Of a DNA stretch of 64,000 bases, positions 18,501 through 60,600 are shown in pieces (position 1 is the stretch's first letter; every line of letters starts with the position of its first letter). Source of the DNA: Perna viridis. Taxonomy: Eukaryota. The stretch is from contig CM074521.1 of assembly GCA_037379345.1 (NCBI GenBank), forward strand, positions 24,204,704 to 24,268,703, given 5' to 3'. A program made the translations under genes and the position numbers. The notes under the pieces are model-generated. The model was not told where the DNA came from. It did no database searches and was given only the letters and a program-made list of their open reading frames with translations.

Positions 18501-21500
18501 TGCCACGTTGTTGGAATGTCGAGTAAAATGATGATGCAGGTCCGAAACCGTGTTAAGTATCAAATTACAAATATAGTCAGAAGCTTTCTTATGCACCAGT
18601 TTATGAATCATAATAAGTTTATGATTCTTTCTACGATCTACGAGCTTTTCCCACCCTGTCTCAACGTATAATGTTGCTATAGAAGTTAGTTTAGTCCCAC
18701 CCGTTACTATTCGCAAGGCCTCGATTTGCACACTCTCAACTTTTTCAGACAAATGTTCTATATTGTTGTCCCAAATGGCGTCGCCTTATTCTATTAGTGG
18801 TCTAACGTACGAGAAATACATTTTTTTCGAGTGTAAATCTATCAAGAACTAATCTCAAGCGACGAAGTGAATTTACTGGGGTAAACGCTTTTCTGACAAT
18901 ATTGTCGATGTGATTATGCCACGATCCGTTATCTGAAAATATTATACCCAAATGCTTTTGGCTTGCCACTTCCGGTATGTCATGATCAGTCATCTTTAAT
19001 ACCGGATGTACCACTCATGTAGACCTACGCCAAATAAGCATCGTCTCGGTTTTCTGTGGATTACATTTAACCAGCCAAGTAGTTTCCCACTGGTGAATGT
19101 TCGCGAGGTCATTATTTAAGACACTCGCGGCAATAGCAGGTGAATCGACGGTTACGAAGAGGCTAGTATCGTCAGCAAATAACTTAATAGTTACATCTAT
19201 GTTTACAACGATGTCATTTATAAATATAATAAATGACAGACGTCCTACAATCGAACCTTGCGGTACGCCGGCATTTATGGGTGTTCATTCGGAGAGACCC
19301 CCATTCAACCAAACGCTTTGAGCTCCATGCACGTATGGATAGTACTTCTTTGAATACTCATTTATTTGCGCGAAATCTTGTCGATAACCCATATTCAACA
19401 TGCAGTCAATCTGAAACGTCAGCCCATTATCTTCTTCACTGCAACAAGTATGCAGCTATTCGCCAGACGTACATATTATCGTTAGATTTACCAATCCCGT
19501 TAACTCCAAAAATTTTGCTTCATGGATCAGATGCTCTGACTTTAGAGCAAAATATTTATATATTCACAAATGTGCAAAAGTATATAGTAGACAGTAAACG
19601 ATTTGTGAACACCTAACTATAATCAACTACTTATTAATGCATTTCATACCTTTTTTCCTTAACACTTTATTTTCTCCTCGCCACATATTATATCTTCAAC
19701 ATGTGAGCGTGCAATAGAACATATGTGCTAACCAAATTGCCATTCTTATAAGGAGACGGACTTAGTATAAGCTATGCTTGTTTCCGAATCCTTGTCTTAT
19801 TACTATTATGTCTTGTAATTTATTGTAATCAAACTATTTTTGAATAAAATATGTTTAAACTAAATATAATTGCCCTGGCAAAACATTTTCTTAAGACAGA
19901 GATTAGGGTCACGGAACAAATATTTGTGTCATTTAACATTTCTTCTTTTTTTTTGTTAACATTAATAATACTTTACTTACGACATTAATTTGTGCTGTAG
20001 CATAAATAAGGATGATAGTTGTGATCATGACAAACAATCGTAGTCCAGATGCCTTCCGAATGTCGAATGGAGCACACTGAAAACCAAATAACATTCAATA
20101 ATATATGATTAAATTTAAATTAAATTTGATACAAATTATATCGTTTCATAAAAGACACAAAAAATCAATTAATTTTTGTAAATTGTTTCAAATGCGTTCT
20201 CATGTCATGAGACGCTAATTTCTTTAGTAGTCTAGTACAAGCGTAATTACGGACCCAAGATACGACCGGAAATCAAAACATGTTCCGTTGACAAAAAAAC
20301 AGATATGGAAAACAGACACACACAACAACAAAAAAAACATGAAATAATCAAAATACCACACATAAAAACAACAGTAAACAAAGAACACGGACTACACTAA
20401 AAACTGGGAGCATGGACCAGGTCAACCGTTAGAGTAAACTTCCTGTGCTTTTCTTAAAACACCTGCCATAAAATGTCATGAACTTTCTTTACGTTAAAAA
20501 TGTTTTTAGGCTATTACTTAATGAAAATAAAAATATCATAACACTTAATCCTGTCTACAAAACATATTTTAAATAAATGCAAGAAAAACATATTAATATA
20601 TCTAAGAAATGGCTTGAAAGATGAAAGATTGACTTAAACAGATTCATATTACATTGAACCTGATATGAAACGAATTCAAAAGAGTATTTTTATAAAAAAA
20701 ATTTCCAGATTAAATAGTGCATAATATATAGGTTTCGTTGTATAATATATCAGATCGTCTTCATTTGAAAAGAATATTTCATACCATCCATACGTATGTG
20801 AGAAACATGAGATAGAAGATAAATTAAAAATATCAATCATGTATAAGTGCGCTTAATTATAATCAGACAAACATTCGTCACTATTCTGTCTTCACATCTA
20901 TCATTCTCATCATTTCAAAATTGTGATAAATATAACTGAAATGTGAATGAATGGTCACTTGAATCATTGGTTTCCCAAGTACAGGTCGACTGTAGTTCAG
21001 CTTAAAATACCACTTTGACAAAAATCAGTTCTACAAGTTATTATAAGCTTTTATATATAATGAGCATTAATCACAGAACTAATTCACAACACTAATCAAA
21101 AGAGCAATTATTGCCAGGGTTCGAGCGCAAAAATCATAAGAACGCAATGCAAGGATAAAAACCAGACGGGAAAAACACATACAGCTAAGAACACGAAACA
21201 ATCAACACAACACGTACAACGAAGCAAAAGTAAAAGAGCTACTTGGATTCCACCAACAAAATGGAAGCATACATCCAGTGACCCGGTAGGCTAGGCGTCC
21301 TCTGCTTTTCCAGGTACACCCGCCGGGCCCCTTATAAAATGTCAAATCTGTGTTTGACGTTAAAAAATCTACGTTTCCGAAAAATATATTTTGTTTAAGT
21401 TGTGGTACCGTCGAAAGGTTTTACGAATATCATTCATATATGAAATGGATTCCAAATAACATATTATCATAAATTCCTGTTAATTATAGTAAATCGGTTT

Positions 21501-24500
21501 ATAAGTATAGGATATGTTGGACGTACAAGATGTTAAAGATTTTCTGACAGAATTAAGAATATGCATGTCGATACCAGACAGATCATTTATTTAACATGCT
21601 CCCAGTTTTTAGTGGCGTCCGAGTTTACTTTTGTTACTTTGTATGTATGAATTTAGTTACTTTATGTTCTTTGTTGTGTATGTCTGTTTTCCATGTCTGG
21701 TCTTTGTCCCTGGATTACATTCTTTTGATTACCGCTACAACCTTGGTTCCCTTGATTATTCTTTAATCGGAAAGAATAAACTTGATCCTTACAATGTGAA
21801 AGAAAACGCAGATTTTTTTTCAGTATCACAAATAGACAACTCAGGATACAAGTTCAAAGTTCCATTACAAATCAACTAAACTATTAAAATGTCTAAAGTT
21901 TAGATTTTTTATGTCAAGTTCTTGTGCTTTCTATGTAATTTTTTCATTTGTACACGTTTAATCAATTATAAACCAACATTCACTCTAAAAAGAAAACATT
22001 AGAGAATGGAAAGGCTTGGCAAAACATGGGCACACTCTTAATGATACAAACTGGTAGAATCAAGAAAACAATTGGAAGAAGAAGAAATTAGTCATCTTCA
22101 TGACTTAGTACAGGCATCTCATAGTGAAATGGTGGGTTAAACCATGTGTATGTCCAACCATACGTCCCACTTCACAAGGAAATATTTACGCAACAAAAAA
22201 ATAGCAATGAAATGGATTTCAAACGTGCAGCACATTACAAAATACAGCTTTCAGGTGTCAGTATATTAGTACAGGCAATGTTGGATGTACAACATTCGGC
22301 AGATTATCTCACTGATTTAGGAGACACAAAGATAATTAAACTAAAGTACCTTGCTTTAGAGCACCATATCAGATACAAACCTTAAGTTTTACACTTAGCA
22401 GTAACATGAGTATTATTGAAATCCATACAAACGAGGCGAGGAATATCATCAATAATAACAAGGTCCTGTAACATACAACACAATGTATATCGATACACCA
22501 TATATTATATCTACTACATTTTTGTTTTATTTTTGTGCAGTAATATAAATCCATATTTTCCACATCATATTTGAATTGTTTACATCTTTCTATGATATCG
22601 ACATTATAATTTGACAACGCACATATAAGGTTTGAAATTGTATTCACATTGTAAGTACAATAACAACACAAATGTTGTTAAAATGGTTAAAATGTTAAAT
22701 GTTGTTTTTAGACAATTGTCGAAATCCAGGCAACCGTTTTGTCCTTAACAACGTTCTATGTGATACTAAACTTGATTTGTACCATTCAATATACCGTCAT
22801 TTTATATATCAGCAAGAAGCAAGAGTTCACTTTATAAATCTATATAGCAATGCTATTTAGTGAGGTGGCAACAGTTTCATGAATGGTTACATGTCTAACA
22901 GGAAACACGCCTACAGCAATAAACAGTGTGCATTTTATTTTGGAGCTTAAATCTTGGAAAAACCATTTGTCAATCAAAATTATAACAAACGAACATGAAT
23001 ATGGATTCCTTTTACTAAAGTTGGCCTCGATTTGTATTCACTACACATCACAAACCTTGGTAAAACCACTGTCTGCATACCAGCTGTACACAGTAACATT
23101 ATCAAGGAACATATCATACTGCTACTAAAGGCAAAGTCATCCGCTGCGTGATACTGTAAAACAATTGAAATAAACCTTTTTTTACGAATAGAAATATTAT
23201 AAAATCAACGGTGAAATTAAAACTTTAATAAAAATCTATTTCATATGCTCCCACGTGCTCGGTTGTCACAGAGTATATAGAGATAATACATTTAAAAGTA
23301 TATTCATATTTGCTACATGACTTCGTTAAATTTGGAATAACTAGAGAAACGTTCAAAGGGAAGAAACTCCAGTGCTACAATCGGCTAAACGTGATAAGAA
23401 AAAGTAGTTCTTACTCGAATCTCAACAAATGTATTTTGTTAGGTACTTTATTTCGTCTTTTAAAATTAAATCTATGTTATTTCTTACCCTGCTTTCTTTG
23501 GTAGAATCTTTAAACCTGAGGGTGAAGAAATTGACATGGTCTCTTTTTTCTCTGTCTACAACTCTCGCGGTCAAAGCTGAGGCAAGATATTTATTTACTC
23601 TGTCCTGCGGTTGTGGCTTATTTGCGTGTCTAAAAAACAAGTGTGGTTCTGAACTAAGGGTTTGAAGTGTGCTATTTATCTTCAAGCAAGTAACAGGGTT
23701 AAAGTCCAGGAATAAATTGTGTCTTGTTACTCGCAATGTTACTTGCTGTAACAGGTGGTCGAACATGGTTATCTTAAATGTGAAAAAGGGAAGAAGGCTT
23801 TGGATTTTGTAATGATGTAGAAGTCAAACAGTAAAATATAATACGAGATGGCTTACATCGTATCTGAGACCCTTTTACAGTACGTTTGGGTTATATTTGC
23901 AAACTAAATGATTACTATCACTTAGGCATTTAAAAAGGATGCAAAAATAAGATATTTATCACATATGCAAATAAACTCAAACAATGTTGCAAGTAGACAG
24001 TTGAAATAAGGACTTCTAAATATCTGTTTGATACTAATAGTTCCATTTCTACCACAACAGACCATATACCAAGCACATTAACGACTTGTTATTTCTTCCT
24101 GATTATCTGCATCCACAATTTTCATGACACTTAAGAATCAGTTGAAGGACAATATATTGTCTCTGTCAATCGATTCGTTTTACATTCTGAATGAACAAAA
24201 CGGTCAAGGCTAAAAATGATATATCACAACTAAGATGCCTTAAGCCACTGAGGTCTTGTAATGTGAAAGATTATTATATCAGCAGATGTTAGTGTATGAA
24301 ATTCTCATTTAGGTCTAACGTAACCAGTAGTAATGTTTGTTTTCTTCAATTCAAATCTATGTTCAGGAAGATCGTCTTCATTTGAAACGAACACGTGGTT
24401 GTAGTAAACATGTGATAACTTTGGGTCGTCCACTTGCAGGGCGTTTTATCAAATAAAATACCTCTATTTTGCATTCATTTTTGTCAAATATGTGCTTTTA

Positions 24501-27500
24501 TGTAGGCTTGATGGTACAAGATTTTCTATCTATTGTAGCTTTCAAGATAATGGCTTTAAACGTAAAAAATAACATCATGTTTCGCCTTTCAAGGACACCA
24601 ACTCTTACAAGATGTAGTCTTTCAACTTTGACACTTACAATTTTTGGACCAGTTTACATTGAATATGAACGCGTGGTATATAATATCAAAACTACATACT
24701 CTTAGGATGATTATGACTTAAAATTATCTTCACCAGAATTGTGGTGTCAAATATTTTTGAAAAAAAAGTTAACAGACGACGCACAAAAAGTAGTGGCAAA
24801 ACCTTACATGGACCTTTCAGGAATATATGAGGAATACTAGATATAGAAAAAGATGAAATATACAAAACGCAGTCTTTATAAGGAAATTAACAAGAGGTTT
24901 CCAGAAAATAACACAAACTTAGAAATCATCCTGTCTTCAGCTAAAGACATCTCAAGTGAGATGGTCACTACAGTTAAATACTGTACAAATGCAATACATT
25001 AGTAACAAAAATAATACGATTATTAACATCAAAACCGAAATTATGAAGAATGTAAGTGAAAATCATAATGATATATATTTTAAACAAATCATAAATTCTT
25101 GAATGCGTAGTTCGGTTACAAACAAGAATTTGAACCCACACTATAACTATTGATATGGACACTGTCGTAATTACAATATACATATTCATAAAATTCTTTA
25201 TATACGGCCTACACCTAATTAACAGATTGAAGCATATGAGAAAGTGTGGAAAATAACATATCATCCTAAAAGAACACAACACATAGTTATAGTGACAAAC
25301 TTATCGGGTAAAAAAACACAATTATTAGTGGTAGTGCACTATTTGGAATACAAACATATTCACCTAAGAATCATGCAGAGGATGATATTTTGAGTTGCTA
25401 ATATCTTTATTTGTCGAACCTTAGGTACAACACTAATTTTTATTCTTTTTATTGAACCTGTAATTAAGATGTACACAACCAAACTTTACTGGCCAAAGTA
25501 ATTCAAAAGTAACAAATAACTAATAAATGATTAATTATTTTTACATACGTCATACAGCTAAATGGGAGAGTCAAAGAATTCATAGCTCTCGCACACTAAA
25601 ATCTGGGAGCATATTTCATCCTATTTTCAGATCGTAAGTCCAGACAAAATATTTTAAAGATATAAATGGAAACCCAAAAAGTATATGTTACGTCAATACA
25701 CAAGATGAATTTTTGTAAATTAAAATTGACAATTGATGAGCAACTCGGCTAGAAAAGCAAAGGACGCTTAACCGCCCTATATACTAGGACTTTGCTCTCA
25801 GTTTTATGGATGTTTAGCGCTGTATAACCTGATTTAACCCACCATTTCGTTTGAAATGTCTGTACCAAGTCAGAACCATTGCACTACCAGGTGCTCCGGT
25901 GGAGCAAGATCTATTTTACCAGAATTATTTTGGAGTTGACTTGATTATGGATCAGGTTAGTGCTCGGTGTTGTTACCCTTATTTTTGTGAAATCCAGGTT
26001 GCTCATTTGTATCTTTGTACCTATTACTTTGATTATGTCAGGCTTTTTATTATGTGTGTCTAATTCCCTTGTCTAATCGTTGTCCTTGTATCACCGTTCA
26101 AATAGTGATTCCCTTGATTTCCTTTACTATAGTAGCATTACTAGGACAGCAATTACTTACATCACATCTACAGACGCTCGGGGTTTTATTAGTAATGAAG
26201 TTATGATAAATAATGTACAGTTACTACCCTCGATTACTTAGGATCATTATTTATAAAATAAAAAACATATATACCTTTCTTTAAAAGCTTTCCTCAGCTT
26301 GTCGGTAACTGAATATCCAAACTTTGTCTGCAAATAAATAACGTGAAGAGATAAGTAGCCAACATAATTAAGTTAAAAGTCAATTTAACACTTTGATGAA
26401 ATAAACGCAAAATGTGTCATGTTTTTACTTCATTTGTGTGGTAAAATGGTTGCTTGTGTACTTTTAGTCTCCTACAAGTATTTTGCGTCCTTTAATTTGA
26501 AAGGCTTCTCTGTTTCCGCTTTGGTTTTTTTCTGATGCATCTTGCAAATATTTATTTTGAATTTTGAATACACATCAAGTACTTGTTGTCCCTGATTTAA
26601 AATTCAATTAGTAGTCAGTACACAAAGGTGAAAACAACTTTAAATATGCATAAAATTGTACGTAATAAATGATTCATTACTCAAAATATTTGAAATATTT
26701 CAAAGAAATAATGATTTTCACTTTTAAAAGATGTCTAGTGACATTAAGGCGCAAAATGCAAAATGCATGCATACTTAAATTTTATTACTGGGGTTGTATT
26801 GTAAAAAAATATGTCAATTTATTTTGTTCTCTTTTTGTACAACATGCAAAATGTTCTAAAGCAGTTGATAACATAATTGAAGAGTTGTTTAATTCAATAA
26901 CTTGTACTCTTTGTTACACTTAGTATCGGTGCACTATGCAGGGAGGGAAAGTTAATATGGATAACGCATAACTCATTGCTAGGAAATAATCAATCAATTA
27001 TTTAGTTCATCTGCAAAGGAAAGACGACAAGAAGCATTTAAGATGACGACTGGCAACGACACAATCAAATTTGTAATCCATAATTCAATTTTTGGGACAT
27101 TTATGTTCATATAATCTATGTTCAAAAGGAAGTGGAAAATATTATTCCAATTGTAAATCACGTTCGTGTCAATATATATTCCGAATATGGTTTCAGAGGA
27201 TTGCCACGTTCAGAATAAAAATCAAAATTTTAGATATGAAAGGAAAGAAAGTTAAAGAATTAAACATAACATGTAACAAAGATAGGGAATTATATGAAAA
27301 ATAATGAACTCCAACATTTTCAAAGATATCTACTAAGATGTTGAAAATATACAAATCTATTCCACCAATGGCGACAAACACATTCTGTCAAGATAGACCT
27401 CCATTTTTTGCATGAACTGTTAGAATTTGTGCAACCAAAATAATTTCAGAAACTTGAAACGAAGCAAGTCACTTTACCATGACCTTTTCTAGCAGTATCC

Positions 27501-30500
27501 GGGGTAAAGGCAGTATTAAAAAGAACTAAACCATGTTTTTACCACTATTGTGTCTTCCCCATTGGACGTCTGTATAATCTATTAATAAGTAATTAATTTT
27601 CCAAGACAACCTAATGAATCAAAAGTCTACGTTAGAATCAGGCCAGGTTTGGAAAATCTAAAACATGCCTGTCAAAAACACTGATAATACATGTTTTACG
27701 TATATATTCTTCTATGATTAACATTTGGTGGCAACCACAAAGCAGAATTTAGAAAAAAAATCAATAAAATGTAAGAAAATTGCACTAAATGGCAAAGCTG
27801 CCCAAATTTATTTTTGTAGTTTATTTTTATAACAACATAATTCATTGCACCAATGGAGTTTAGATAGTGTTATTCACTTCTTCATATGGTTAAAGTTAAC
27901 TGTCTCAGTGAGATTGGTTTTGTACCCACTACCTGATTCTTAGACAGACTGGTACATAATATTTACAAATTTCGACGATCCATGAGCCTTGGTTTCTTCT
28001 GTTGGAGAATTCAACACATTTGAGAAAGGGATCTCAGCGTTAAATCTCACTGACTGCATAAGACGAATTACACAACTTGACACATTCCTGAAGGACAGCT
28101 TCTTTGCTCGTATGTTGTGAACATCCGACTTGTTTAGGAATTTGCTAGGAATCTGAATAACCAAAATATATATATATATATGCATGTAAAAATAAATTCC
28201 TTTAGAAAATAAAATAAACATTTGACTGAATTGATTTCAGATGTCATAGACACGTCATTAACGTATGCGCATATCAAATCACAATTTATAACCACATTTG
28301 ATAATGTAACTGCACGCCAGAACAAAGAAATATCAAAAACATATCAACTCCAATGATCATCCTAACCTTTAAATTAATTGAACAAAATGAATCTGAAGCT
28401 TTGGTCCACCTTTTGACTGTTAAATCTTTTCTTTTAATCCATTTGATATAGATATATCCACAGAGTTATGTTTTAGCTTTATTTACAAAACATTAGTAAA
28501 AAAATATTTCTTAAGAGAAAAATCGTTCTTTGATATTATATTTTTTTATGATAATTGCGTCACGATGAATCGACTCCTAACACAAATCTTATTTTTGTTG
28601 TTTTAAAACTGAATTGAATAATTTCTAGCATATTGTACTAGAGAATTTATAAAACATCCAAAACGTAATGGCCAATTTGAGGAATTATGCATGTCGACTT
28701 GCTGTAGATGTATTACCGATGAAAGAAACAAATTATGTTTGATGAATTATTACAAATATTGATATTTGGCAAAGCACGAAACAAATAAAACATCACTGGC
28801 CATAACGATGTTTGTTCATACAACACTTTAACACCAAGGTAATAAGAGACAAAAGCAATGATTCTTCACAATCCATATAGCTATTTGTGATAACCAGAAC
28901 AATCTATTTTATTTCATTATATCATCTTGTTTATCCTGAGGAACCAAACGTTTATCTTTTTGTAAAAATTCATCTATACATCTTTTTTAAGTCTGGTTTA
29001 AATTGGGCTAGGAATTGTTTTTTTTTGCAGTTGAGAAAAATGCAAAAGGATTACGGGAGATGGACAACAGAAGGACGCAAGGTAATGGGAAAAGCGCACA
29101 TGGACCTTTGATGCAGGTGAGCTAAAATGAATTGTTTATGATATTTGATTGAAAAATGCATAGATTGTAAATATAGTAGTTTGAACAAAAATATGAAATG
29201 TTCAGCACATCTTGTAGAAGCTAAAGATTACGATTATAACAGGATAACTAAATCCGTTGCCCAAATGAATAAAAAGCCTCCTTTTTCAAGTAATGTTTTG
29301 TTAAATTATTATTCTTATTACATCTAAGAACACATAGAAGTTAACAATATTGAAAAAAATTGTTCACAAAAGTTCAGATCAACAAAAAGGCAAAATTGAA
29401 TTTAACATCGAATGTATAATTGCATCAATGATAAAACTCATTTGATCTTGAATAACAAGAAACTGTTTCCGATGTTTTTTTTCCAATATATTTGTTCATA
29501 TTTTCATCAAGGTCATGCGTTTATTAAGTAAACGGAGTAGCAGATATAATTAAAACATCAATGGCCATATTGATATTTTCTGGTAAATACTGAAAAACTA
29601 ATGTGTACTTTGGAATGAAGTATATCTTTCTCTCAAGAGCGTATCACTACTTGTGATCTTACAATAAGCAGTTTGGCTATTCATCAATGTTTTAACAGTT
29701 TATTCAAATGTATACATCAGTCGCTAATACGAAGGTCATGAATATTCATTTATAATACTGGTACTTACACTCTAAGTAAACGTTTCTCGTTAAGAAAAAT
29801 ATATTTGAATTTTACTCATTTTAATTTTTGCCATCACATGTATTCGATCATTTTCAAGTATAAACATATACATATCTCCATCAGATGAAATGGTTAACAT
29901 TGTAGTAAAGAGTAATGAAGGGAACCAAGGTTCTGGCGGAAATTTATCAATTAATAATGACTACATACAACAACCAAATGATTATGGAATTTCCGCTTTT
30001 GCATTGAACCTGACATTACTAATTGAAAACAAAGTATTAAACACTTTGATGAACATTTTGAAATGATATTTTTTATGTTTTTGTAATTCGTTTCTTCAAT
30101 AGCAAAACAGAATGTTCTAGTTAAAGCTGGTGATTACGTGTTTGTGGTAATCAACAAAACATCTGAAACAACAATGTAGATCAATAAGCATTTCCTTTAT
30201 ACATCTGATAGAGGTTAACGTACTGTTCTCATAAATTTATTTTAAAAGTCCAAAAGATATTTCTTCTTTATCACNNNNNNNNNNNNNNNNNNNNNNNNNN
30301 NNNNNNNNNNNNNNNNNNNNNNNNNNNNNNNNNNNNNNNNNNNNNNNNNNNNNNNNNNNNNNNNNNNNNNNNNNNNNNNNNNNNNNNNNNNNNNNNNNNN
30401 NNNNNNNNATATTTCCGTTACTTTTTGTATGATTTTGTATTTTTAATCTTTAAATTGACAAAAGAAAAATCAGTTTCATCGAGTAACCTTAATATAACGT

Positions 30501-36500: not shown

Positions 36501-39500
36501 AATTTGTCTTAAATTTCTATATTCGTATGTAATTCTTGAAAACAAATCACGACGTCCCTGGAAATCACTCCTGAAAAAATGCCTCCATTCTTCGAATACT
36601 TAAAATTTATTCCATGTTTTTTTCTACCTAATGATGGACTTTATGAAAGTTTAACATTTACAGAAGCAATATTGGAAGATTGCATATCTATAAATATAAC
36701 TTGATAGGCTCGCCATGTAGTATTTTGCATAAAATTGTTGTTTGCTTCTAAAATTACTTGAAAACGTCTTCCAATCAATTATGCTTTATTGCCATGTTAA
36801 ATAAATATGGTTTCTTTATTGGTTCCTGGCATTCTGCGTGAAATAGCAAGAATGATAAAATATCGGAACTTATCGGAACTTTTCACTTTAAGTCTGTCAA
36901 TTTACGTATCCATGCAGTACGAAGACTTAATGTTGCGGATGTGATTTACACACTAAATGGATCAGTCAACTGACATGAAATCGTACAGGGAAAAAAACTA
37001 AATTGAAATAAAATTGATGATGAAAGTGATAGATGATTGTATGTTAATTTCGTTAATTTTTCATCTATGTTCAGCAATTGCATTACATAGATTATTTCCA
37101 TTTGTCAGTGATAACCGACATTTTTACTGCGCCGTTTGAACAATTCTAATTTAGCGTTACGTCATCCAGACGAAGTAAATACAAGCAATTTTTCAACAAT
37201 AAAATTTCCCTTCCATATCAAGTGATTGTTGTTGATTTGTTTTTCTTATCTATTACAAAAGTACATTATATGAATGTAAAAAACTGATTAATTTGAAGTA
37301 TATAAAGTTTGTACAACACCATCACTGAACACTACATGAAAACCAATTATAAATGTTTGAATCACATCTAATATTTAATAATATCTTTGCTATTAATAAA
37401 CAATTGAATTCAATCTGGATTCAAATTGTCAATCTTCTATAAACATTGAAAAGTTAGGAATATTTTGCACGTTTATCAATGAATAACCTCTCATCAACAG
37501 CTGTAAAACAAAAGTCTAAGGAAGTTCAACATCCAAAATTATATTTAGCAATCAAAAGCAAAGTTATATGAATATGATGCAAAATCAAGCACCACGCAGG
37601 TTAACCATGTGCACTATAAGGAATAAAGCTAAGGTGTTTTAGACGTTTCAAATTATGTCCCACTGCAAATTTCGGTCCTTAGCTTCGACAATGCAAATTT
37701 ACTTTACAAAGACCTCTATTCATATTAGTATATGTTTTATTGCATTAACCTTATACAAAAATGTACCGCTATCTTCAACTCTCAAAGTGACTACATTTTT
37801 TGTCTAAGCATTTTATTGCGGCGCCCCTTATTTTCTCTTTCCGATGTTCCATGTATTCTACAGGAAGAATTATGCTCGTATTTACTTGTTGGTTATTTAA
37901 AACATAACTAATCCTTTTACTTTACTTAGTGGATAAATCAATTATATTCTATTACGATCATAATATTGAAGGTTTTCTTAATTTTCTTTATTTTTTAGCC
38001 GCTACCATTCAATGTCATATTTTTGATACTTTCATAAACGTACCTTACAGAAAACTATAAATCTGTAATAATCAATACCAGATGCTTTGCCACCTTATCG
38101 AGTAACTTTATCAAGCTGTCAATTTCGAAGTTTTTTTATTCCCTGTTGTTTATTTAATCATGATTGTTTAGTAAACAGAAATTAACATGTGGCTTATTAT
38201 AAAACCCATGTTCATATGAGATATAATTTATAAGAACTGCACTATTGAATTAAAAATTAAGGGAGACAACACTGTAAATTACACAGAAATACAATAAAAA
38301 CTGTTGGATTTTCAATGTGGATTGTCTCCTATGAGCAGATAGATTGGAATGGATAATTCTACACTTCATCATAACGACCTATAAAGCAACTTAACAACAA
38401 AAATAAAAACAGTTATCCTTTTTGGGGTGTTTCATATTACAGAATTTGCATGATTCTTACAACGACTAACCTCTTTGTTGATATCTTTCACACCGTCGAT
38501 TTTACTAAGTTTATACATTGTCATCCGTGTGTATGTTTGGAAGGGGTAAAAACGTTTTTAAGCTTCATTGCAGATCTGAACAAGATATTCTGCTTATCTA
38601 GGTATTGAAGGTACCTATATTGATTCATGCATATTCCAGTCAAGGTCGCAGGTAACTGTATATGTCTTTACAGTGTAAATGTATTTCAAGCAAACATTTT
38701 CCTGTGTTTATTACCTTATACGATCAAAACCAGATGGATTCCACCCTAGAGTAAGTATATATAAGCAGTAGCAACCATTGATCATAGACATTGGAGAACT
38801 TTAATTCGCAATCTAACAAAAACAAAAATAATTGTTCCATTCGGACACTTTATGTTTGATTGAATAGAACTACATTCAGATGACCTATTCAGATTTCTCG
38901 GAGTTTCCCCTTACAATAACGTTTTCACAACCATGAAAGCTTAAATATTATGGACTAATAAAAACGGTCATATGACGAGAAAGTTCAATTTGGTTTTATT
39001 AGATCCTGCAATGGACTGAATGGAACAATCTTAAAGTTTAATAAAATTCTTCGAAGATTTTTAGTAAGGTAGCAGATTTGTTTTTTCCTAAGTTTTACGA
39101 GCACACCTTGATATGCTTCTTACATGTATCTTCAGATTGTCCTGTAAATTCATCCAACATTTCGATGATTTGCTCCTATTGAGATAGTAATATTTTTGTT
39201 GGTGTTTAAATCAATCGAAATGCTTTTAGGATCTAACAACTCTCTTCTATTTTCTATTTGTTCAGGTGTAATTTTCAAAATCCTCATATGATCGCTTTCA
39301 CAATCATGAACGAAAAATTCTGATTGGGTAATCCGTAAAGTCATGTAGAATTGAGTACTATTAGATCCCACATGCAGTGCCCGAATGGAACAGCTAAAAT
39401 GTCCAACTTTAATTAGATTAAAACAGTACATTTCATTTTGCGTAATGATGATACTTTCTAGATCTATACCAGATGCGCTCCTTACCTTGGCGAGGTAATC

Positions 39501-42500
39501 AAACCGTCCGAACAATTCGTTTAAGATCTTGACAAGCTCTTGAGCAGTACAATGTGAAGACAAATTGGTGAATCCTACTATGTCAGCAAACAGAATACTG
39601 AAACATAAAAAGCCAAAGTAATCCACAGAAAAATATTTGGTAGCTATTTTGTAAATTTTTATTTTGTTTTCAATCACCGACGGAAAATTATATTTCTTGG
39701 CGTAATGGAGTCAGAATAGATAGTATTGCTAAATCGAAACGCAGCATATGTCGTTGTCAGTGTGAATTACCATGATATCAGGTTAAAATATATGTGACAA
39801 TGAAAAGAATCATTAATACATATACATGTAAATGTGAGGCACAATTGCCATTGTCGGTGTGCATGGCGTCATTGGCAAAATAGCGATAAACATAATTGAC
39901 TGTATAGATAGCAGTGATTTTCTGAATGTTCCCAGTGTAAAAATATCGATATTTCACATTGTTCAATAAATTCTGTAATCTCACTATTGGGCTTTCTCTC
40001 GCCAAAACATCACAACACAAATATCAATCCGCCATTCACAAAATTTGCAATTTATGTTGAAAATAGCAACGAATAGTGGAGGAAATCTATATAATAAATA
40101 GGATAATCAATTGGTTGTCGTGAATAACCAAAATATGATTACTTCTACCAAGAACACAGTTAGATTTAACACGTGCGCGGAACAAGTTCCGCACACTCTT
40201 TAAATCTAGACGTTCTTGGGCACTCGTAATCATATTTTGATTATTCACTTTCCAATTAATTATCCTATTATCATTTTCATTGGTCAGTTTAATTGGCTAA
40301 CGCGAGAAAATCAACAACCCAAAGAGCGTCAACAATTTCTGCATCGATCATCAGGCGTATGGCTTTTGCCCCGGTACTCAGCTCTTTTTACAAATGTTGT
40401 CATTAGTGGTCTGAATGTTAGACTACTACTTTTGTGACGTCAGTGGTATTAGTGTTCGTATAAAAAATTGGAAATATTCTTAACCATCCAATTCCTCTGG
40501 TTCATAATGGAATGAACCGTGAACAGATAAAGTCTGGATAATCAGGGTTACTGTAATCTATAAATATCAATGACAATTTTGTTAAAGATATAGGGTTTGT
40601 AAGTCTCGCTCTAGTTTCAGTTTTCCTTCCGAAATTTCCGACGTAGAACGTATTGAAATTCGATGACCGATCTGTAGTTTTAATTCCGGGAAATCAAAAC
40701 GCTGCATTCACAATGCAAAATCTTCCATTTTATGCTCTTTTTAACATGTTTATCATATATAACTAGATATTTGTCATTTTTCATCAGTATTTTTACACAA
40801 TTTTTTTTTTTTTTTTGCTTTTAATGTTAATAACGAATCTCCGTGCATTTAAATGGGAGACGAGGACCCATTCTCATAAAATCACGAAGTCACGTGACGA
40901 GACTTACATACCCTGTTACATTGACGTATGAAGATTAGGTCTAACGGTCCAGAGCGGCAAAATTTCTTTAAAAAAGTCAAGTCTGAGAATATTCTGAACT
41001 GTCATGGTGAATGACTCCGATCAAAGACTTTGAAATTGATGACGTCATAAACAGTAAAGAACATTTGAGATTTTTTTTCAAAGTTTTGTGGAGCTGAGGC
41101 CAGGACTTTAAAACATGTTTTGGTGTAATTTGATATTGTTTGCCATGTGTTTTACCAACTGTTGTTTTTGTTTATTGTTCAAGTGAAATGTTTTTATTGG
41201 CAGTGTCCAAAAATAAATTACCTTTATCAAATTCAAGGCAATAGACAAGAATAAATTGGGAGGAAGCACAATGTATCATTTGTATTACCGCATCGTTGTT
41301 TAATTTTAAATAATTTTAAATTATACTCTGTTTTTATGAAGTTGCTAATTTTCCTTAAATAAATAAGTTACACCTTTAAACCTGAAATAGTCCTAAACAA
41401 GAAAATGAATTCATTAGCATTTACCCTTAATCTGGATTTAAAATGATATTTTTTTAATTTGAATATCGAGTTCTAATTTTAGTGTTTTCGCCTAATCAAA
41501 TACATTTGTTGTTGTATTATTTTGGTTGAATATCACTCTGGAATTAGACACTTACATATGTAAACAGAGAAATTTTTGTGTTGCCAAACTATATTTTCCT
41601 CTTCTGATTAATTTATTTACGATGTCTAAAAAAACTGGTCGACGGACGCCAGAGATAGATGGATGAAATAAACAAAATGGTCGACGGACGCCAGAGATAG
41701 AAGGCTGAAATAAATAGGATGGTCGACGAAACAAAAAATAGACGAAACATAAGCAAAATGGTCGATGGTCTCGATGGTCGCCACATATTGATGAATGTAA
41801 ACAAAATAGTCGACGAACGCCGGATATAGATGAACAATAACCAAAATGGTCGACGGACGCCAGATATAGATGAATATAAACAAAGCGGTCGACGGACGCC
41901 AGAGATTGATGGATGGAATAAACAGAATGGTCGGCGAACACAAGAGATAGACGAAGAAAATAAAAACGATGAATGCCTGACATAGACCAAGGAATAAACG
42001 CGGAATATAAGATGAAAACCATAGTTATCTGTTAAAATTGTAAAATTCCTATTCGGTAGTGTCTAAAGTGCTTTAGTTTTATTTATTTTTTTTTATTATT
42101 ATTATTATAAAATTGAATATCTTTTCATATTGGCACCTTATCAATTACCTGACATTTTTGTGACATTTGATGTAAATTTTGTGGAATTGTCCCCTGGTTT
42201 CTGGTGACGTCAAATCATCTTTCATTTCTATGGCAACGTGTTGTGGAAGCACACTTAGCAACAGTTTCTCCTGCAAAATAAACACAATTATAAAAACAGC
42301 GTTTAGCTATGGCAAAGTTAGTGGTGCAATGTTTGTTCAGTATATAATGAAGGTTGTGTCAATGATTTAAATGACCTAAAATACGTCAGAGTTTAACCAA
42401 CTGTAAAGAAAATGATTTATATGCTAGAGAAAATGAACATTAAACAATTTGATGTCGTTGGAATGGACTCTAATTTTATGATAATAATAAAAAATATTAA

Positions 42501-48631: not shown

Positions 48632-51600
48632 GTTTTTGTATCCGCATGGATGCGAATTACATAATGTATCAAAAAGTAATCCGTCAGATAATATAATATG
48701 TTAATAAACCTTAATGTTCCGCTATAGGTACTTGGCAACCTTTTCACAGCAAATTCATGATAGTTAAAACTTTGTCAGTTAAAAAAAGAATTTCAAATGA
48801 TAATATAATAATAACACAAATCGACGCTTTACGTACCACTCCAGCTAAGGATCAAAATGTGATTTATGGGTAGAAAGCCTACATATTTTTATTTTTTATA
48901 TTTTGTTTGAAATGTCATAGAAAACAGAAATTAACATGTGGTTTTTCATATAACCCGTGCTCTTTGGAGATAAAAATTATATAGAATGCACTGTAGATTT
49001 CAAAATTAAGGGCGATAACCCTGTAAATCACGCTCAAATACAATAGAATCTACTGGATTTTCAATGTTGATTATCTCCTAAGAGCAGGCAGATTTGAATG
49101 AATAATTACTCATTTCATAGTATAGACCCATAAAACAACTTAATTACAAAAATAAAAATATGAAGCCTTTTTTGGGGTGTATCACATTTTTCAGATTTTG
49201 CATGATTCTTACAAAGACAGCTACTTCATATTTGAAAAGATCACACAATTGGCGAAACTAAATGGATGTTAGACAAAAAGTATCAATTTCGTGTTAAACG
49301 TAGTTCTCAATTTATCTTATTTGATGCAACGATTTGTGCTATAATTTGATGTAATGGTAAACTTGTGAAATTCAAATCTGAAGCAGTAACACCAGAATGT
49401 AAGGGTGTCTATATTGTCACCGACTATTACAATTTTAGTTAGTATGTGCACTCAAATATCTATAATTTACACAAACATTTTATATCGGCTAACTTTGTAG
49501 GAATTTAAGGACACTTAATTTTCTAGAATAAAATGCTTTGCTGAGCCAGCTTGTAAGACCGCAAAGGTTGAACCCTTAACAGTTCGGGCAAGGATTGACA
49601 CACGATACAACTTGATACATATAACAAATTCGGTTGCGATTAGACATTTTCGATAGGATAAAAATTTGAGCAGAATCAAAGTGGTCCATTTATTTTTAAT
49701 TCATACATAATTCAAGTTACAATCCTTATCAACCATTCCTAGACTTCCGATGGAGGTTTGGCACTTCGTGGTACAGTATGGCAAAATAATATATATTCAC
49801 TTTCAGTTAAGTTTTATTCTTAAATAGTTCAAATGACAACTCCCAAAATCAATTCCAACTTACCCTGTGTAGACAATGGTACAACTTCATAAAGATCCAT
49901 TCACATAGTTTATGATAAAGTTATAATTGCCCGGAAATCATGAAAATGTTTGTTTCTGGCCAGTTTTTGGTCCCTAATTCCTAAAAGGTTCAAGTCACAA
50001 CCCCCAAAATCGATCCCAGATTTCCTTTTGCTGGTATATCAACCTTTGGATCAATTTTATAAAGATCTTTCACTTATAAACCGGTTATAATCATGTTATT
50101 GTCAAGCTATCATAAAAGTGCATGTTTCGGGCACCTATTTGACCTTACCTCTTACAAGGTTCAAGCCACAACCCAAAAATCAAGCCTAGCTTTCCTTTTT
50201 GTGGCATGGTTTCCGGTGGTATAATTTCATTAGGATCCATACACTTACATCCTTGTGTTATCGTCTAGAAATCAAATTATCTAAGGACGACGATGAAGAC
50301 GATGCAGACAACGACAGCATGATTTCATTATACGACCGCAAGTTCATGTGTTGCCGTCGTATGAAAATGTTTCCCTGATAGACATAATTTTTCTGCAAGG
50401 GCCTTCTAATCATAGATGGGTCCGATCCCCTTTTTCAAGCTCTAAAATTTACTTGATTATAATGAAGTAAACTGGATATCAAAGGCGCTATTCCGAATTT
50501 CAGCATCCGCCATTGCTAGTATAGAAAAAGATTTTTCAAATGCTGGGTAATGAAGTATTAACTGTCTTTTAAGAACCAGTTGATTACAGAAGTAGCAGAA
50601 GGCTAACTTGATATTGTTCATAAATATTTGTTACTTAGTAATAGATAAACAATCATCGCAGACGATATTTTCGCGAGCCAGCGAATAGCAAAAATAACAG
50701 CGTTGCCGAACTTATTGGTAAAGCAATACAAACCTCAACAGTTTGTAAGAAACACATGTGCTAAAATCTGTGCAAAGAATTCAGATAATTACATAAATCA
50801 CACATCTTAGTAATGCTCGTATCTTATACTTTTCAATTTCTTGTATTTATAAGAAATCATCGTATGTCACCAATTACATAATTATGTCATATAAATCTCC
50901 TACAAGTACGCAAAGGATGTATTAATCACAAATGTTACGAACAACGATTAAAAAACATGCATACGGTTCGTAAAATTGAAAACTGAACATGCATGCATCA
51001 GACGTTTGAGCCTCGTGCAGATCCGGGTGTTAAAAGAATAGGCCTGCAGCAGCACTAAGCTTGTCGTAAAAGGCGACTAAATAGTGCTCAGAACCCTAGC
51101 CAGGGGCTAGAGCGCTCTGCCCACAGAGCAACTGGGATGTGTGCCCCAGGTGGTGGAATGGGGTACCCCTGGCGTGTTACATGCTGGGGTTGTCAGGCTA
51201 TAATACGGAAAACCTGATTGCCAACCATAGTGGTGCACCGTGCTGGGAAAAATGCCACGTTCCTCGCACTCTAAAGAACCCTACTGTGGTATTCTCCCCT
51301 GAGTAGGAACCATAGGGTTCCGCCACAGAAGGCTAAATTGCCCGACCCTACCCACCTCTCCCCATTTCCAGTGGCAATCAAAATTTGTCGACCCCATTGT
51401 CCTTGTGTCCCATCCCTTTTTCATTTCATCATCGTTTCATGTTCATTTTATCATCAATTTCATGTTCATCGTCTGAATATAGCTGAAATAGTGCTGCTCG
51501 GACGTTAAACCCCAACAAACAAACAATCAGACGTTTGATTGATATTTTATAAGAATTGCTTCTTTGTGTTGACTGTGTTTAATCTTGCGTTCAGTGTTTG

Positions 51601-54600: not shown

Positions 54601-57600
54601 GACGACCAATCTAATTCAGAGGAGTTGGGTAGAATTAAGATAAATGGGTTGGGATGCAAACTCACGAAGGAATATCTTACCCAAGATATGTCTACAACCA
54701 TTGACAAATGTCACATCTATAGACCAATCATGGCCTTATTCAAGATAAAACTGTATGTCTTTAATCCACGATCTATGCCATATCCACATACACGTTTGCC
54801 TATCTCGTCTTGCCCAATATACATGTAAATCGACAATCTTTGATGTATAACGCACCCATGGCAATCATGATAAATCTTAAATCCTTAATCTACAGACTCG
54901 TTTGCCAATCATGGCAAAGTCCAAGATATGTCTACGACAATTGATCTGTGCCATACCTTAACACCCATTTACCCATCATGATCTTAGCAATTCCCTCAAT
55001 ATGTCAATCTTAGGCCTATTCCACAACTACTGACCCGTTTCCTCATCATAGACATACCCAAAATATGTCTACGATAATTGATCTCTGCCACATGCACCTA
55101 CAAACCCGTTTGTCCATCACTACCTTATCCTATATATGGTTGGATATATATCGTGACCATATCCACAATATGCCTACAGTAGTTGATCTCTGCCACACCT
55201 ACAGATCTGTTTGCCCATCATGGCCTTAACCAAGATATGTTTACGTGATCTCTTACATGTACAAATTTACAGACCATTTGCACATCATGGACTTACCCAC
55301 AATATGTCTATGTAACACCCATACAGACCAGTTTGCTAATCATGTCCTTACTCAAGATAAGTTTAAATGATTTCTGACACAACTACAGACTCGTTTGCAC
55401 ATCAATGACTTAACCACGATATGTCTATGTAAAACCTACATAGACCCGTTTAATTGCGGATCATGGCCAAACCCAAGATACATGTATGTCTACAATAATT
55501 GATCTCTTCCTCACCTACAGACCAGTTTGCCCATAATGGCATAACCCAATACAATGTATATGTTTACATGATCTCTGTCACACCTAGAGACGCGTTTGCC
55601 CACCGTGATATTATACGTAAGATATGTCTACAATCATTGACCTAGCTATGCCACAGACATATAGACATGTTAGCCGATCATGGCCTTACCTGACCTAGCT
55701 ATGCCACACTATACAGACATGTTTGCCCATCATGGCCTTACCTAAGTCTGAGTAATTGTCATTGGCGTAGGGCATTGCCATCCTCGGAATAAAACGGTTA
55801 TAAAAACAAGAAATCAATTTACTTCAGTAATAAAGGAAGGTCATCATGAGACCATTATCTGTACACGTAAAAAAGTAAAAGCAAAAAGATGTTATTGATG
55901 TACAGAGCTGCATATAAATGCCATTTCTGGTTTAATGGTTAGCCAGCTAGCCATAATAAATGTTTCTATTACGCAAGCTACATATTACTGAGACGGGTCG
56001 ATTCTTGGACATTATATTTGGTCTTTTGTAGATGATATAATATAAATGGTATCTTTTCATTGGCTAAAGAAACTTATTTTTATATATTTGACAAAGGAAT
56101 AATTTATTGGCCAATTTTATCTCCTTGTACATTCTTTAGCTAGTTCAGTTAAAATTCCGATCACCATGATCACTCTACCTCTTCCGGCCAGTCATGCACT
56201 GCATTTCAAATTCTAACTACAAATGTATATAGATATATTCTGGTCAGTAATTGCATTTCAAATCCTACTCAGGTCTAAATTCCAGATCTAGACATTGCAT
56301 TTTCAATTTAATCTCTTTATTTTGGGTCAGAAATTACTTTTTTTTTAGTTCATATCACTTTCCCGAGCAGCCATTAGATTGATGATATAACCTGAAGACC
56401 GTCGATTTCACGGTGGCAACTTGAGTTGACGTGGGACGCGTAAGCGGAGCTGGTAACCGAACATTTACGACAATTACGATTGTCTGCAATTGGAAATATA
56501 TTTGTGAAAATAATAGCTTGGGATCCGGGCTCCTGACTAATCATCATACATTATGAGTGTTCTTGCAGTCAGCAAAAGTTGATGAACTTCAAATTACAGA
56601 ATAAAAAAAATATTTACAGAAAAAATCTGATGAGTCAATTTTTTTTACATGCGAGTGAAAATTACATAAAAATTACATTGATTTTTTTTTTTAAGAAAAA
56701 CAAAAAATGTACATTTTTTCATTTTTCACTACCGCGATCACGAAAGTTTTCATATTAAGTTTTAAGGAGATAAATTTGAAGTGATGTAATTTCTTTGCCA
56801 ATCAGCTTAAAGCTTCTTAACAACAGCATGAAAAACACAAAATACTTGTCAAATCAAAATTTGAGATGTATTAATTTAATCAAAGAAACTCTTGAATTAA
56901 ATTCGATGACAAAAACTATGGCAATATCATTAACTCTAGTGACATCATAGTACCGTAGCTCTTTTCAAGCGCATTTCGGTCTTAAATTTGATAATAAGCA
57001 ACTGTAACCATTCAATGGTTTCCAATTTTACTTTAAAACCTGTTATTTGAAAGACAAATTATTTATTCATTTCAGCGTCTTGTTAACGTTTTTTTTTTAA
57101 TTCAGTACGATACGATTTTCGATAGAATGTCCTTAGATGGAAGTACAAGTGTTATATCGCCTGGTGTACATACGGTATATACTGCAGTAAAGGATTATAC
57201 TAGGTTCTTAAAACCGGTCACGATACAAAATTCAAACCAGTAAACAATGTTCTAAAACGTATTTTTCTTCAAAGTGTAGGCTTTCTTTAACAAGACGAAA
57301 ACTCCCCTTGCTCAAGTTCATTTGCAGGTAAAAAAGATTTTTCTCGGTATCCTCCCCCAACTCAAATTTTCTATACCAGTCAATCAGGATCGTTTGAACT
57401 TAAATTGTGCTCTCAAGGATCAGAGAAATATCACAAATTGAGATTTGTCTTAAACCAGGCTAAGTACATACATTCAATAAATGTGAGACATATTGTTAAA
57501 CATTATAGAACTACATTGGGTGTCCATATGTAAGCGTTTTAATAAGCTAGTGGCCAAGATGTTGTCACGTCAAACAAGGTCATCTCAACCCCTAAAAATG

Positions 57601-60600
57601 CACACCCTGATGGGGTTGTAAGGATCCCCACTTCATCGTAACGTCGACGATTTATGCGTCGGACAACACAAACAGATTGATAGACATTGTTCGGATTGTA
57701 ATAGAAATTACGTAAACATGATTATTTCTTTGGAAAATTTCTATTAATCGCCATTTTTCATTAATTGTTCCTAAAACGAGACTGGTAATCAGTCATATTC
57801 CTACAATAATTTGACTAGAATAAGTATAATTTGCATTTAAAATTTAAAACTAGGCTCTCTCCACTCTTTCGAAACAAACTTGTTGGCTAGATCATGCGAT
57901 CACAGTATTTATACATTTAGAGTTACACTGCTTCAAAAAGATATATGCCCATGCTGTTCCGGGCGTCAAAAGAATAGGCCCGCAGCAGCGCTAAACTTGT
58001 CGTAAAAGGCGACTAAATAGTGCTCAGAACCCTGACCAAGTGTAGGGCGCTCTGCCCACAGAGCAACTGGGTTGTGTGCCCAAGGTGGTGCAATGGGGTA
58101 CCTCTGTCATGCTACATGCTGGGGTTGGCAGACCATAATACGGAAAACCTGACCGTAAACAATAGTGGTGCAACGTGTTGGGAAATATGCCACGTTCCTC
58201 GCACGTTAAAGAACCCTTCTGTGGTATTCTATCGGAGTAAGAACTCCTGGTCTCCGCCATAGGAGGCTAAATTGCCCTACCTTACCCACCTCTCCCTATT
58301 TCCAGTGGCAATCAAAATTGGTCGACCCAATTATCCTTGAGTTCCATCAAATTTTTCATTTCATCATCATTTCAAGTTTATTTTAAATGTATCAATGTAT
58401 CATCCATTTCATGTCAATCATCTGAACACGTCTGAAATATTGCTGCTGGCGTTAAACCCCAACAATCAATCAATCAAAAAGAGATGTACTTGATTGCTTT
58501 GTACAGGTTTTGGATGACATTCAAAAGGTTTATTTATGATTCCAAAGGTTCCATATTCTGGTAGACGGTAGCGACTTCTGACTTTAATTGGTTTAATAAT
58601 GTTATAATCACCAGATAAGTCCGAATTTCTCAGTTTGACCCTTCAATCTTCCTGTTCTTATGAACACTGATACGATTGCCAAACCCGACATACCAGTAGA
58701 AAAAGATTGCAGGGACAGAGGAAATTCTGATTTATCATAAAATCGAATTATGAATGAACTTACTGAATATTTTTAACAATAGTGTGTTATCGTAATTTTT
58801 CATCTCTTATTGAAATTGCTGACAAAGACATTATAGACGGGGTGCCGTCTTTCCGCCTTCTGTTTAACACCGTATTTAGCGGACTTTTTTTCATGCCATG
58901 CATGCACGGCGACCTGTCCTCTAACCACTTATGTATTTATACATGCAGCTTGAAAAACTTTGCACTCAGATAATTTCCATATCATCTATATTATACACAA
59001 AAAAGGCAAAACATGAGACAGGACCAAGTACTGCAAAAATTGTTTGATTCAATCAGTCCTGAAAATGTGTTTCCATGCTAAAATTATCACAAGGTCTTTT
59101 TGGCTTACTTTTGTTCTTAGAATATTATTACGCTATTTCTAAGTAATTTAAGCAAGTGTAAATAAAGCTTACGGTACAGGATTTGCCCATTCATCAAATC
59201 TACCACGGCTGTGCTAATATTACTTATTACAGATTATCTCAATCAATCTCCCTAAACAATTATCTGCTACAATACAAATCCGATGAGATACGATCCGCTT
59301 AAATAGTCATATAAATAGGTCTGAGAGATTCTATGATTATGTCTCAAATTGGGACACATTTTTGTTTCGTACGACCCTTATGCGGTAAAATGAAATAATA
59401 GTAAAATAAAATTGGCATTTCTGAACAGAAGGTTTCTTGACAAAAACGCTACAAGTTCAAACAAACCACGTCTCAAGCTAGTTTCTTTTGCTTGCTCCCT
59501 TAGTTGGGATTGCTATTTTTACTTAAATGATTAATACAATTTCTAACACCGTCATATTATTGTACATGTAACAATGATGTACAATGTATCTGAAATTAAA
59601 AGACGAAAATATATAGTAATGGATTCATCAGAGATACAATGAGACGAATCAGGAAAACTTTCATTGCTTTCGCTGATTCTAAATTTTCCACATCTCATTA
59701 TTTCAAGTATACAAGTGCATGCTATACATTTGTACATAAAAAGGGAACATAATCCAAACAAATTTCTAATGTTCCCAGTTTTCTAAGGAGTCCGAGTTTA
59801 TTTTTGTTGCTGTGTACGTATTATTTTGGTTATTTTATGTTCTTTGTTGTAAGTGTCTGTTTCCAATGTTTGGTCTCTGTCCCTGGTTTACATTCTTCTG
59901 ATTTCCGCTAAAATCTTGGTTCTCTTGATTACTCTATTATATACAATGTATCAGGAACACGTATTTAACAGGAAATACCAAAATCTTAGGCAAAGTAAGA
60001 AAAACAAAGGAGAACAACTAGAACTACCTCTACAAGGAATTTTAACATTTTAAAATGTAGCGGGTACCGTAACAATTCTTTTGCGAAGATTATTGAGACA
60101 AAAATTTAAGACAATGCGCACAACCTCAATATAACGATCTAATACTGGGAAAAGTTTCATAAAACCCAGTGAGTAGGAATTAGATTTAGCTCAAATGTGA
60201 ATTTCCAACCCATCGTTAAGTCTACGAAGCATGCAACCTTTACCAATCCACTTTCGTGTCCTGTTTCAAAGGTCATCTTGGTTCATTTCAAATTAATACA
60301 GCAAGATTGAAACAAACTCTGTTAGATCTGCAAGTGATAATGTCGCTATAAAAAGCAATTCAAATTAAAGTCTTTTCAAGTATTTAGAGCTTGATATAAT
60401 ATGTTTGTCAACAACAGGTGCTTTCAGTTTTATCAGTTGTTCAATACGATTATATTAAACACTTGCATGCTGAGCAAAGTCTTTGAAAAACCAATCACTG
60501 CAAATAATTTAAGCATGCAAACTCTAGATTATTTGAAATGTCACTGACATCGCAGTAGGATGTTAAGTTTGAAAAGTCTATGCATTTTCAATCAATTTGT

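Follow-up and report, generated by a model that had tools for sequence, protein, structure and literature searches.

The closest described relatives of the retroposon analysed here are the LP-type SINEs and the SINEs with a Deu/Nin body; the papers cited in this report were accessible in part, and what is said of them refers to the accessible text. For the LP-SINE Sgl_LP, that text proposes a presumed promoter in the head and gives neither an RNA structure nor a viral occurrence (Matetovici et al., 2016, PMC4758252), and for the Deu/Nin domain of BivaMD-SINE1 it gives no structure (Nishihara et al., 2016, PMC4824008). The accessible literature treats the function of both modules, the conserved body domain of SINEs and the LP head, as an open question. 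The window, i.e., the whole 64-kb stretch of DNA that was analysed, carries two copies of such an element on its plus strand. Copy 1 (51010-51525) is a non-autonomous retroposon of about 515 nt assigned to subfamily A, with the 5' start common to its family and a 3' tail (51476-51525) ending in (CAAA)n, a type common to bivalve SINEs, and it lies between identical 13-nt target-site duplications at 50997-51009 and 51526-51538. Copy 2 (57946-58474, end approximate) belongs to the same family and is older and more decayed, with an identity of about 85% to its own best relatives; for copy 1, 40 scored matches out of 6172 candidates gave identities of 95-100%. The head model matches copy 1 with 64 bits and copy 2 (57946-58028) with 58 bits, and ARAGORN found no tRNA gene or tRNA head in the 64-kb window.

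The family is abundant in its own genome (G000, 723 Mb), probably that of a bivalve-like mollusc, where the 15-mer linker core of the body has 11,144 exact matches (reversed control, 4) and the head pattern 6,737 (control, 0). Target-site duplications of 8-15 nt flank 63 of 83 near-complete copies, 40 of which start at the same base, exactly 3 nt before stem S1 of the head. Subfamilies A and B account for 80 and 52 of the 135 rows of a biased sample and differ in two blocks 3' of the body pseudoknot strand, and searches of this genome for other Deu or head-bearing families gave almost only the LP-type family of copy 1. A dense cluster of the SINE occurs at 3.33-3.53 Mb of G000:C1 (0.2 Mb with about 40 core matches, where the average is about 15 per Mb), and the family also adjoins, and sits inside the flanks of, a young LINE of the same genome. 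Within the window, exons of an adenylate/guanylate cyclase gene (minus strand, 9511-12504 and 39150-39710; Pfam Guanylate_cyc) have both SINE copies upstream of them and in the opposite orientation. Another interspersed repeat is present in both orientations (5476-5894, 15378-15814, 20294-20501, 21258-21767, 25749-26119, 29906-29943 and 59762-59940), and degenerate tandem arrays occupy 41585-41971 and 54681-55746, with units of about 42 nt and about 60-70 nt.

Judged by its sequence, the element combines two known kinds of module: it is an LP-type SINE, and its body is of the Deu/Nin type. Like Sgl_LP, it combines a head of about 70 nt that is common to LINE 5' ends, of the Nimb/I type in LP-SINEs, with the lack of a tRNA head, target-site duplications, a partial Nin/Deu body and a tandem-repeat tail, although it is 515 nt long against 256 nt for Sgl_LP (PMC4758252). 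The duplications are variable, the tail is a short tandem repeat, and the same head precedes ORF1 of a LINE with reverse transcriptase, endonuclease and RNase H (L490/L541). By eye, the scallop and snail heads in the supplement of PMC4758252 have the same layout, and both stems are present in the scallop head. The first-pass annotation had called the body a Deu/Nin-like domain of a retroposon, and this agrees with what we found: a 16-base core and a downstream motif are common, by eye, to the supplementary sequences of BivaMD-SINE1, Lottia_Nin, Lsa_Nin and Nla_Nin, and the core also occurs in the fetched loci of other families. With DeuSINE/Nin-DC and BivaMD-SINE1, the copy-1 family shares the GCACG-UAAAGAACCC core, an upstream hairpin and a downstream C(U/A)AAAUU; unlike BivaMD-SINE1 it has no tRNA head and no Meta domain, and its loop and downstream strand differ in sequence (PMC4824008).

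The helices of the body segment (51240-51339, plus strand) were then compared with the pseudoknot that had been proposed for it. Copy 1 does contain the hairpin P1 (51240-51269) with its outer GTGC/GCAC and inner GGGAA/TTCCT helices around a 10-nt loop (51250-51259), the complementary P2 strands CCTACT (51280-51285) and AGTAGG (51302-51307), and the pairing of loop AATGCCAC (51251-51258) with pseudoknot strand GTGGTATT (51286-51293), which comprises 8 pairs, one of them G-U. An A-rich conserved linker, GUUAAAGAAC in the family, follows P1 at 51270-51279 and is common to other families. RNAfold predicted P1 and P2 on 51240-51307 with a z score of -2.26, in line with the view that the domain is structured, and gave P2 a probability of 0.94 in the majority sequence of subfamily A. 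The loop/strand match reaches 9 pairs when the last base of P2 is borrowed; such a run arose in 0 of 1000 local shuffles, and whole-element dinucleotide shuffles, in which any match between loop and downstream sequence was counted, gave at least 9 pairs in 1 of 150 and at least 8 in 7 of 150. The match of 8-9 bp is above chance. Copy 2 had been said to keep the pseudoknot, and it retains seven of the eight pairs, the eighth being lost to a T at 58186. The C-G to U-G change noted between the copies is not a compensation: U-G at 51243 and GT at 51270-51271 are the rule in the family, and an alignment with 30 close relatives places private changes of copy 1 at 51243 and 51270-51271, so that the comparison of the two copies shows no compensation.

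The strand at 51280-51290 is also complementary to 51322-51332, a pairing absent from the earlier annotation, and the resulting nested helix, followed by a conserved CUAAAUU (51280-51339 in all), gives both copies and subfamily B their minimum-energy fold once the stretch is extended. With pseudoknot loop penalties left out, subfamilies A and B total -37.7 and -38.7 kcal/mol under the pseudoknot model and -29.6 and -33.1 kcal/mol under the nested model; set against the best knot-free fold before loop penalties, the pseudoknot is ahead by 4-6 kcal/mol in A and B, ties in copy 1 and loses in copy 2. Overall, the pseudoknot and nested models lie within about 5 kcal/mol of each other in this SINE family. 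Subfamily changes at 51251 and 51283 preserve their pairs as G-U. Within the family, two-sided changes number 2 in 1209 pseudoknot cells and 0 in the other helices, and the copies decay without informative covariation by which the folds could be judged; among the representatives, no covariation of P1, P2 and the pseudoknot was found. The subfamily-variable blocks at 51294-51300 and 51310-51318 are, by eye, complementary to each other in A, B and copy 2, with a conserved AGUARGAA between them, possibly forming an inner hairpin with covariation.

For the comparison of the two folds across families, a metagenome scan supplied at least 122 matches at no fewer than 121 loci. Nine loci, single and partly decayed copies, were chosen by eye for a duplex test, eight of them from other families and one (L207) from the family of copy 1; bacterial chance matches, L129, L133, L139, L154, L221 and the other BivaMD-type copies were dropped, 34 of the last being pooled into a majority sequence. 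The conserved linker and the C(U/A)AAAUU-like motif downstream served as anchors for the strands. A longest-helix test without anchors discriminated poorly (nested p 0.002-0.98), and an automatic alignment of the body left the nested helix out of register. Within the copy-1 family (copies 1 and 2 and L207), p was 0.002-0.004 for the nested helix and 0.05-0.10 for the pseudoknot. Among the eight other-family rows, the nested helix reached p <0.05 in three (L155, L222 and L205), for a total of 6 of 11 rows, with p values of 0.054 and 0.098 in two further rows and no signal in three; the BivaMD-type majority sequence gave 0.12 for the nested helix and 0.34 for the pseudoknot. The proposed test, whether loop/strand complementarity persists across families, has a negative outcome in these rows: the loop/strand duplex is no better than shuffles in all eight other-family rows (p 0.31-0.97). 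P2 equivalents pair at 3-5 of 6 positions in the eight rows, those that retain the AGUAG strand included. At its third pair, the nested helix has U-A in the copy-1 family and the BivaMD-type rows and A-U in L155, L222 and L224, the published Nin consensus sequences are compatible with this helix by eye, and most other-family rows fold an equivalent of P1 that ends in GCACG. By this comparison, the predicted P1 hairpin is conserved, and the predicted nested helix is the better conserved partner across Deu/Nin families. A Nin 5' part (GGAUGAGAC...AAACCGAGGUC) lies upstream of P1 in L155, L284 and the published Nin consensus sequences and is absent from the copy-1 family. We take this part to resemble a hammerhead core with G replacing U4. 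A scan of viral sequences with the body core gave 47 loci, all judged by eye to be chance matches.

The loop/strand pairing (P2 at 51280-51285/51302-51307, pseudoknot at 51251-51258/51286-51293) may thus be a family-specific alternative fold of the copy-1 family, because it is energetically competitive there. A stronger form of this reading, in which the pseudoknot is the non-catalytic working fold of the copy-1 family's body, or one of the two states of a switch that bivalve Deu-type SINEs have conserved, appears doubtful to us. The above-chance match, the competitive energy and the G-U pairs retained at 51251 and 51283 speak for it, as do matches seen by eye in L155 (7 of 8 pairs) and in the published consensus BivaMD-SINE1_TeGr (8 pairs, in another register), but the duplex is not kept in the other-family rows, the register varies between families and the loops of some families (L205) are too short to pair. 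A further point against the pseudoknot is that the element contains GCCAC twice, which gives one and the same strand two complementary sites.

A predicted pseudoknot in the head, backed by covariation, is a stronger result than the pseudoknot of the body. The head (51010-51080, plus strand) is predicted to begin with an H-type pseudoknot (51010-51047) made of stem S1 (51013-51015/51024-51026), a one-base loop (51016) and a 7-bp stem S2 (51017-51023/51041-51047), with a conserved AGAAUA at 51035-51040; the copy 1 version has two private changes. This is followed by a hairpin GUCG/CGAC (51063-51066/51074-51077) with loop UAAAAGG, then UAA, and an enclosing helix 51051-51056/51083-51088 (51051-51088 as a whole). 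Pairs were counted in 11 sequences, which came from retroposons, the 5' UTR of a LINE, the 3' UTRs of RNA viruses and a large DNA virus. Paired cells made up 93.5% of 154, with 29 two-sided changes; all seven S2 pairs and one of the three S1 pairs change on both sides, and none of 500 shuffles reached the score; controls with slid partners for the head stems paired at 25-55%. RNAalifold recovered stem 2 and the hairpin unaided, the letters of the hairpin being invariant partly by construction because the search pattern fixed them. Rfam returned nothing in the element, the head included. HDV-like ribozymes are defined by a nested double pseudoknot (P1-P2-P3-L3) with a cytosine in J4/2, and strict and relaxed descriptors of this fold gave 0 matches to the head on both strands. 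The literature searched, with most subscription papers outside reach, yielded no description of the head structure or of its occurrence in viruses.

The viral search used a pattern of 19 bases from 51062-51080 and gave nine viral contigs, seven of which also carry, unasked, the CCG-U, the 7-bp stem, the CGG and the AGAAUA of the head pseudoknot. Six distinct true matches scored 9-10 of 10 pairs with the descriptor, against 4-8 for 105 chance matches; looser viral patterns gave no new head member among the matches listed, and a blastn of phages with the head gave seven records at an E value of 9, i.e., chance. In five viral contigs the head begins on the sense strand 7-102 nt past the last stop codon, with 27-119 nt left between it and the contig end, and Pfam identified an RdRP or an RNA-virus capsid domain in four of them and nothing in the fifth (L294). 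The head thus has the property, shared with xrRNAs, of a predicted pseudoknot located in a viral 3' UTR. One contig (L285) carries a second, compensated copy in tandem and two separately named contigs (L286 and L291) have the head at the same place, which argues against assembly chimeras. A further copy (L287/L296) is intergenic in a 212-kb DNA-virus contig. In the genome collection, five of 20 loci carry the head, all in animal-like DNA inside microbial bins: three (L471, L473 and L468) are SINE-like head units with duplications, L481 is a head unit whose tail is (GAA)n, and the fifth is a LINE (L490/L541). We rejected a bacterial origin of the head, as the carriers show microsatellite tails, duplications and a LINE. 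The contig ends of two soil bacterial bins (L488:1-620 and L489:3300-5900) hold SINE-like units and microsatellites, and these animal-like ends are likely chimeric assembly.

At LINE 5' ends, the head was found in the 5' UTR of one element (L490/L541, G003:C4:518900-525000) that encodes an endonuclease, a reverse transcriptase and an RNase H and whose own 5' boundary is not fixed, an 8-nt and possibly chance duplication being all that marks it. It is an apparently intact animal-type LINE with an ORF1 of about 520 aa and an ORF2 of 1238 aa, on a scaffold whose title names a bacterial gill symbiont; the LINE is there either as misassembled host DNA or a real insertion. The young LINE of about 6.07 kb in G000 (L505-L510; copies 99% identical) encodes endonuclease, reverse transcriptase and RNase H in an ORF2 of 1247 aa that is 52% identical to that of the head-bearing LINE; in the one family fetched, neither the head nor a match to the SINE tail was found. 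Its first 60 bases (e.g., L505:953-1012) take on an HDV-like double-pseudoknot topology in all six copies, which passes the relaxed descriptor (1 of 500 shuffles) and fails the strict one at a non-canonical J4/2, and Rfam gave no match at this 5' end. We regard this predicted fold as a candidate ribozyme, and related LINEs appear to exchange 5' modules.

The presence of the head in RNA viruses points to an action at the RNA level. By analogy with viral RNAs, a block to 5'-3' exonucleases is the most likely role, with self-cleavage as its main rival; the position of the head in viruses and its tandem copy speak for the former (PMC8374639, PMC11702639). xrRNAs are located in viral 3' UTRs and depend on a pseudoknot (PMC8374639), and since Xrn1 is not stalled by frameshift pseudoknots (PMC10321173), a plain H-type knot would be insufficient. 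We put at about even chances the joint explanation in which the head RNA sets or protects the 5' end, preferably as an exonuclease block, and the Deu/Nin hairpins of the body are a structural or protein-binding module. The element would be transcribed by RNA polymerase II, either by read-through or from within, and the upstream leader would be trimmed back to the head pseudoknot; the Deu/Nin hairpins would act as a structural or protein-binding module, and the SINE tail would recruit a Nimb/I-type LINE protein for target-primed reverse transcription. An xrRNA has a ring of 15-16 nt around the 5' end and stops Xrn1 in vitro.

That the head is instead a self-cleaving ribozyme of an undescribed class, which would cleave at the 5' edge of the head and so release the retroposon RNA from a longer precursor, seems unlikely to us but deserves weight. 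The 5' start is exact whatever the flank, unpaired residues are conserved, and related LINEs bear either the head (L490/L541) or an HDV-like topology at their 5' ends, the sister LINE, with an HDV-like topology from its first base on, favouring self-cleavage as the shared job; there is precedent in L1Tc Pr77 (PMC3185411) and in ribozymes in the UTRs of linear RNA viruses (10.1101/2024.05.16.594327). Such a cut just past the last stop codon, however, would presumably remove the 3' end of a linear RNA virus, known viral ribozymes are mostly in 5' UTRs according to the accessible text of the same source, and the head matches neither Rfam nor an HDV-like descriptor, the J4/2 of the sister LINE being itself non-canonical. 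Quite improbable is a head with no part in end formation, acting solely as a DNA-level internal promoter or as an element bound by the translation machinery or the reverse transcriptase. A promoter was proposed by Matetovici et al. (2016, PMC4758252), the copy between genes of a large DNA-virus contig (L287/L296) would suit one, and Pr77 has dual promoter and RNA roles, but a DNA promoter cannot account for compensated stems retained in the 3' UTRs of RNA viruses.

The first-pass annotation had also likened the body to a pistol ribozyme, while rightly leaving catalysis unproven. In pistol ribozymes, P2 is separated from the pseudoknot strand by a short loop of four bases that includes purine 32 (PMC11300833), and G40-C41-G42, P3 and a fixed junction come after that strand (PMC4604425, PMC6154101, PMC11300833). 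At the place of the four-base loop, which in the hammerhead is taken by CUGANGA, the body has zero bases, 51285 and 51286 being adjacent; CTC or CGA follows the pseudoknot strand, so the catalytic GCG is, as had been noted, not evident, and a descriptor found nothing. The loop/strand match and P2 are present in the family, with a 3-bp possibility for P3 in subfamily A and none in B. The Rfam pistol model, suggested as a check, gave no match at E values up to 1 in the 64-kb window or up to 10 in 51000-51540, Rfam on 18 related loci gave nothing except one tRNA head, the hammerhead core CUGANGA is absent from both strands of copies 1 and 2 and the majority sequence, and descriptors found no HDV-like pattern in the element. 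Pistol identity is rejected for the missing loop between P2 and strand, the missing G40-C41-G42 and the missing Rfam match, and it is extremely improbable that the body is any pistol-like or pseudoknot-hammerhead-like ribozyme: it shares with both the order of P1 with a pairing loop, A-rich linker, P2, pseudoknot strand and P2' (PMC4604425, PMC6154101, PMC11300833), but unlike them it is a SINE body without catalytic loop, conserved P3 or cleavage junction, its pseudoknot is not kept across families, and an internal cut would presumably split head from tail of an RNA that needs to be copied whole.

Altogether, two short testable RNA models emerge, i.e., a pair of exclusive folds for the Deu/Nin core and a predicted, covariation-backed pseudoknot for the head. 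On balance, we lean towards the head being an undescribed class of self-acting RNA, either exonuclease-resistant or newly self-cleaving, which would have been swapped among LINEs, SINEs, several unrelated RNA viruses and a large DNA virus, would have replaced an HDV-like ribozyme at related LINE 5' ends and would exist in thousands of copies in an animal genome. If the head cleaves, it would be a new ribozyme class; if it blocks exonucleases, xrRNAs would exist beyond viruses, something that the accessible text of PMC8374639 names as not yet found. Either role, if true, would explain the exact 5' ends of tRNA-less SINEs and link the non-coding modules of retroposons and RNA viruses. Like xrRNAs of classes 1-3 and coremin, the head is a compact predicted knot that starts a viral 3' UTR, occurs as a tandem pair and has a flush 5' end (PMC8374639, PMC11702639, PMC10321173), while unlike them its 5'-most strand pairs right after the 7-bp stem strand and it occurs also in LINEs and SINEs. 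Although the LP-SINE head does not match the HDV-like descriptor, unlike the Pr77 ribozyme-promoter of L1Tc/ingi, it resembles Pr77 in being a short 5' module that is present across different retroelements and sets the +1 position (PMC3185411).
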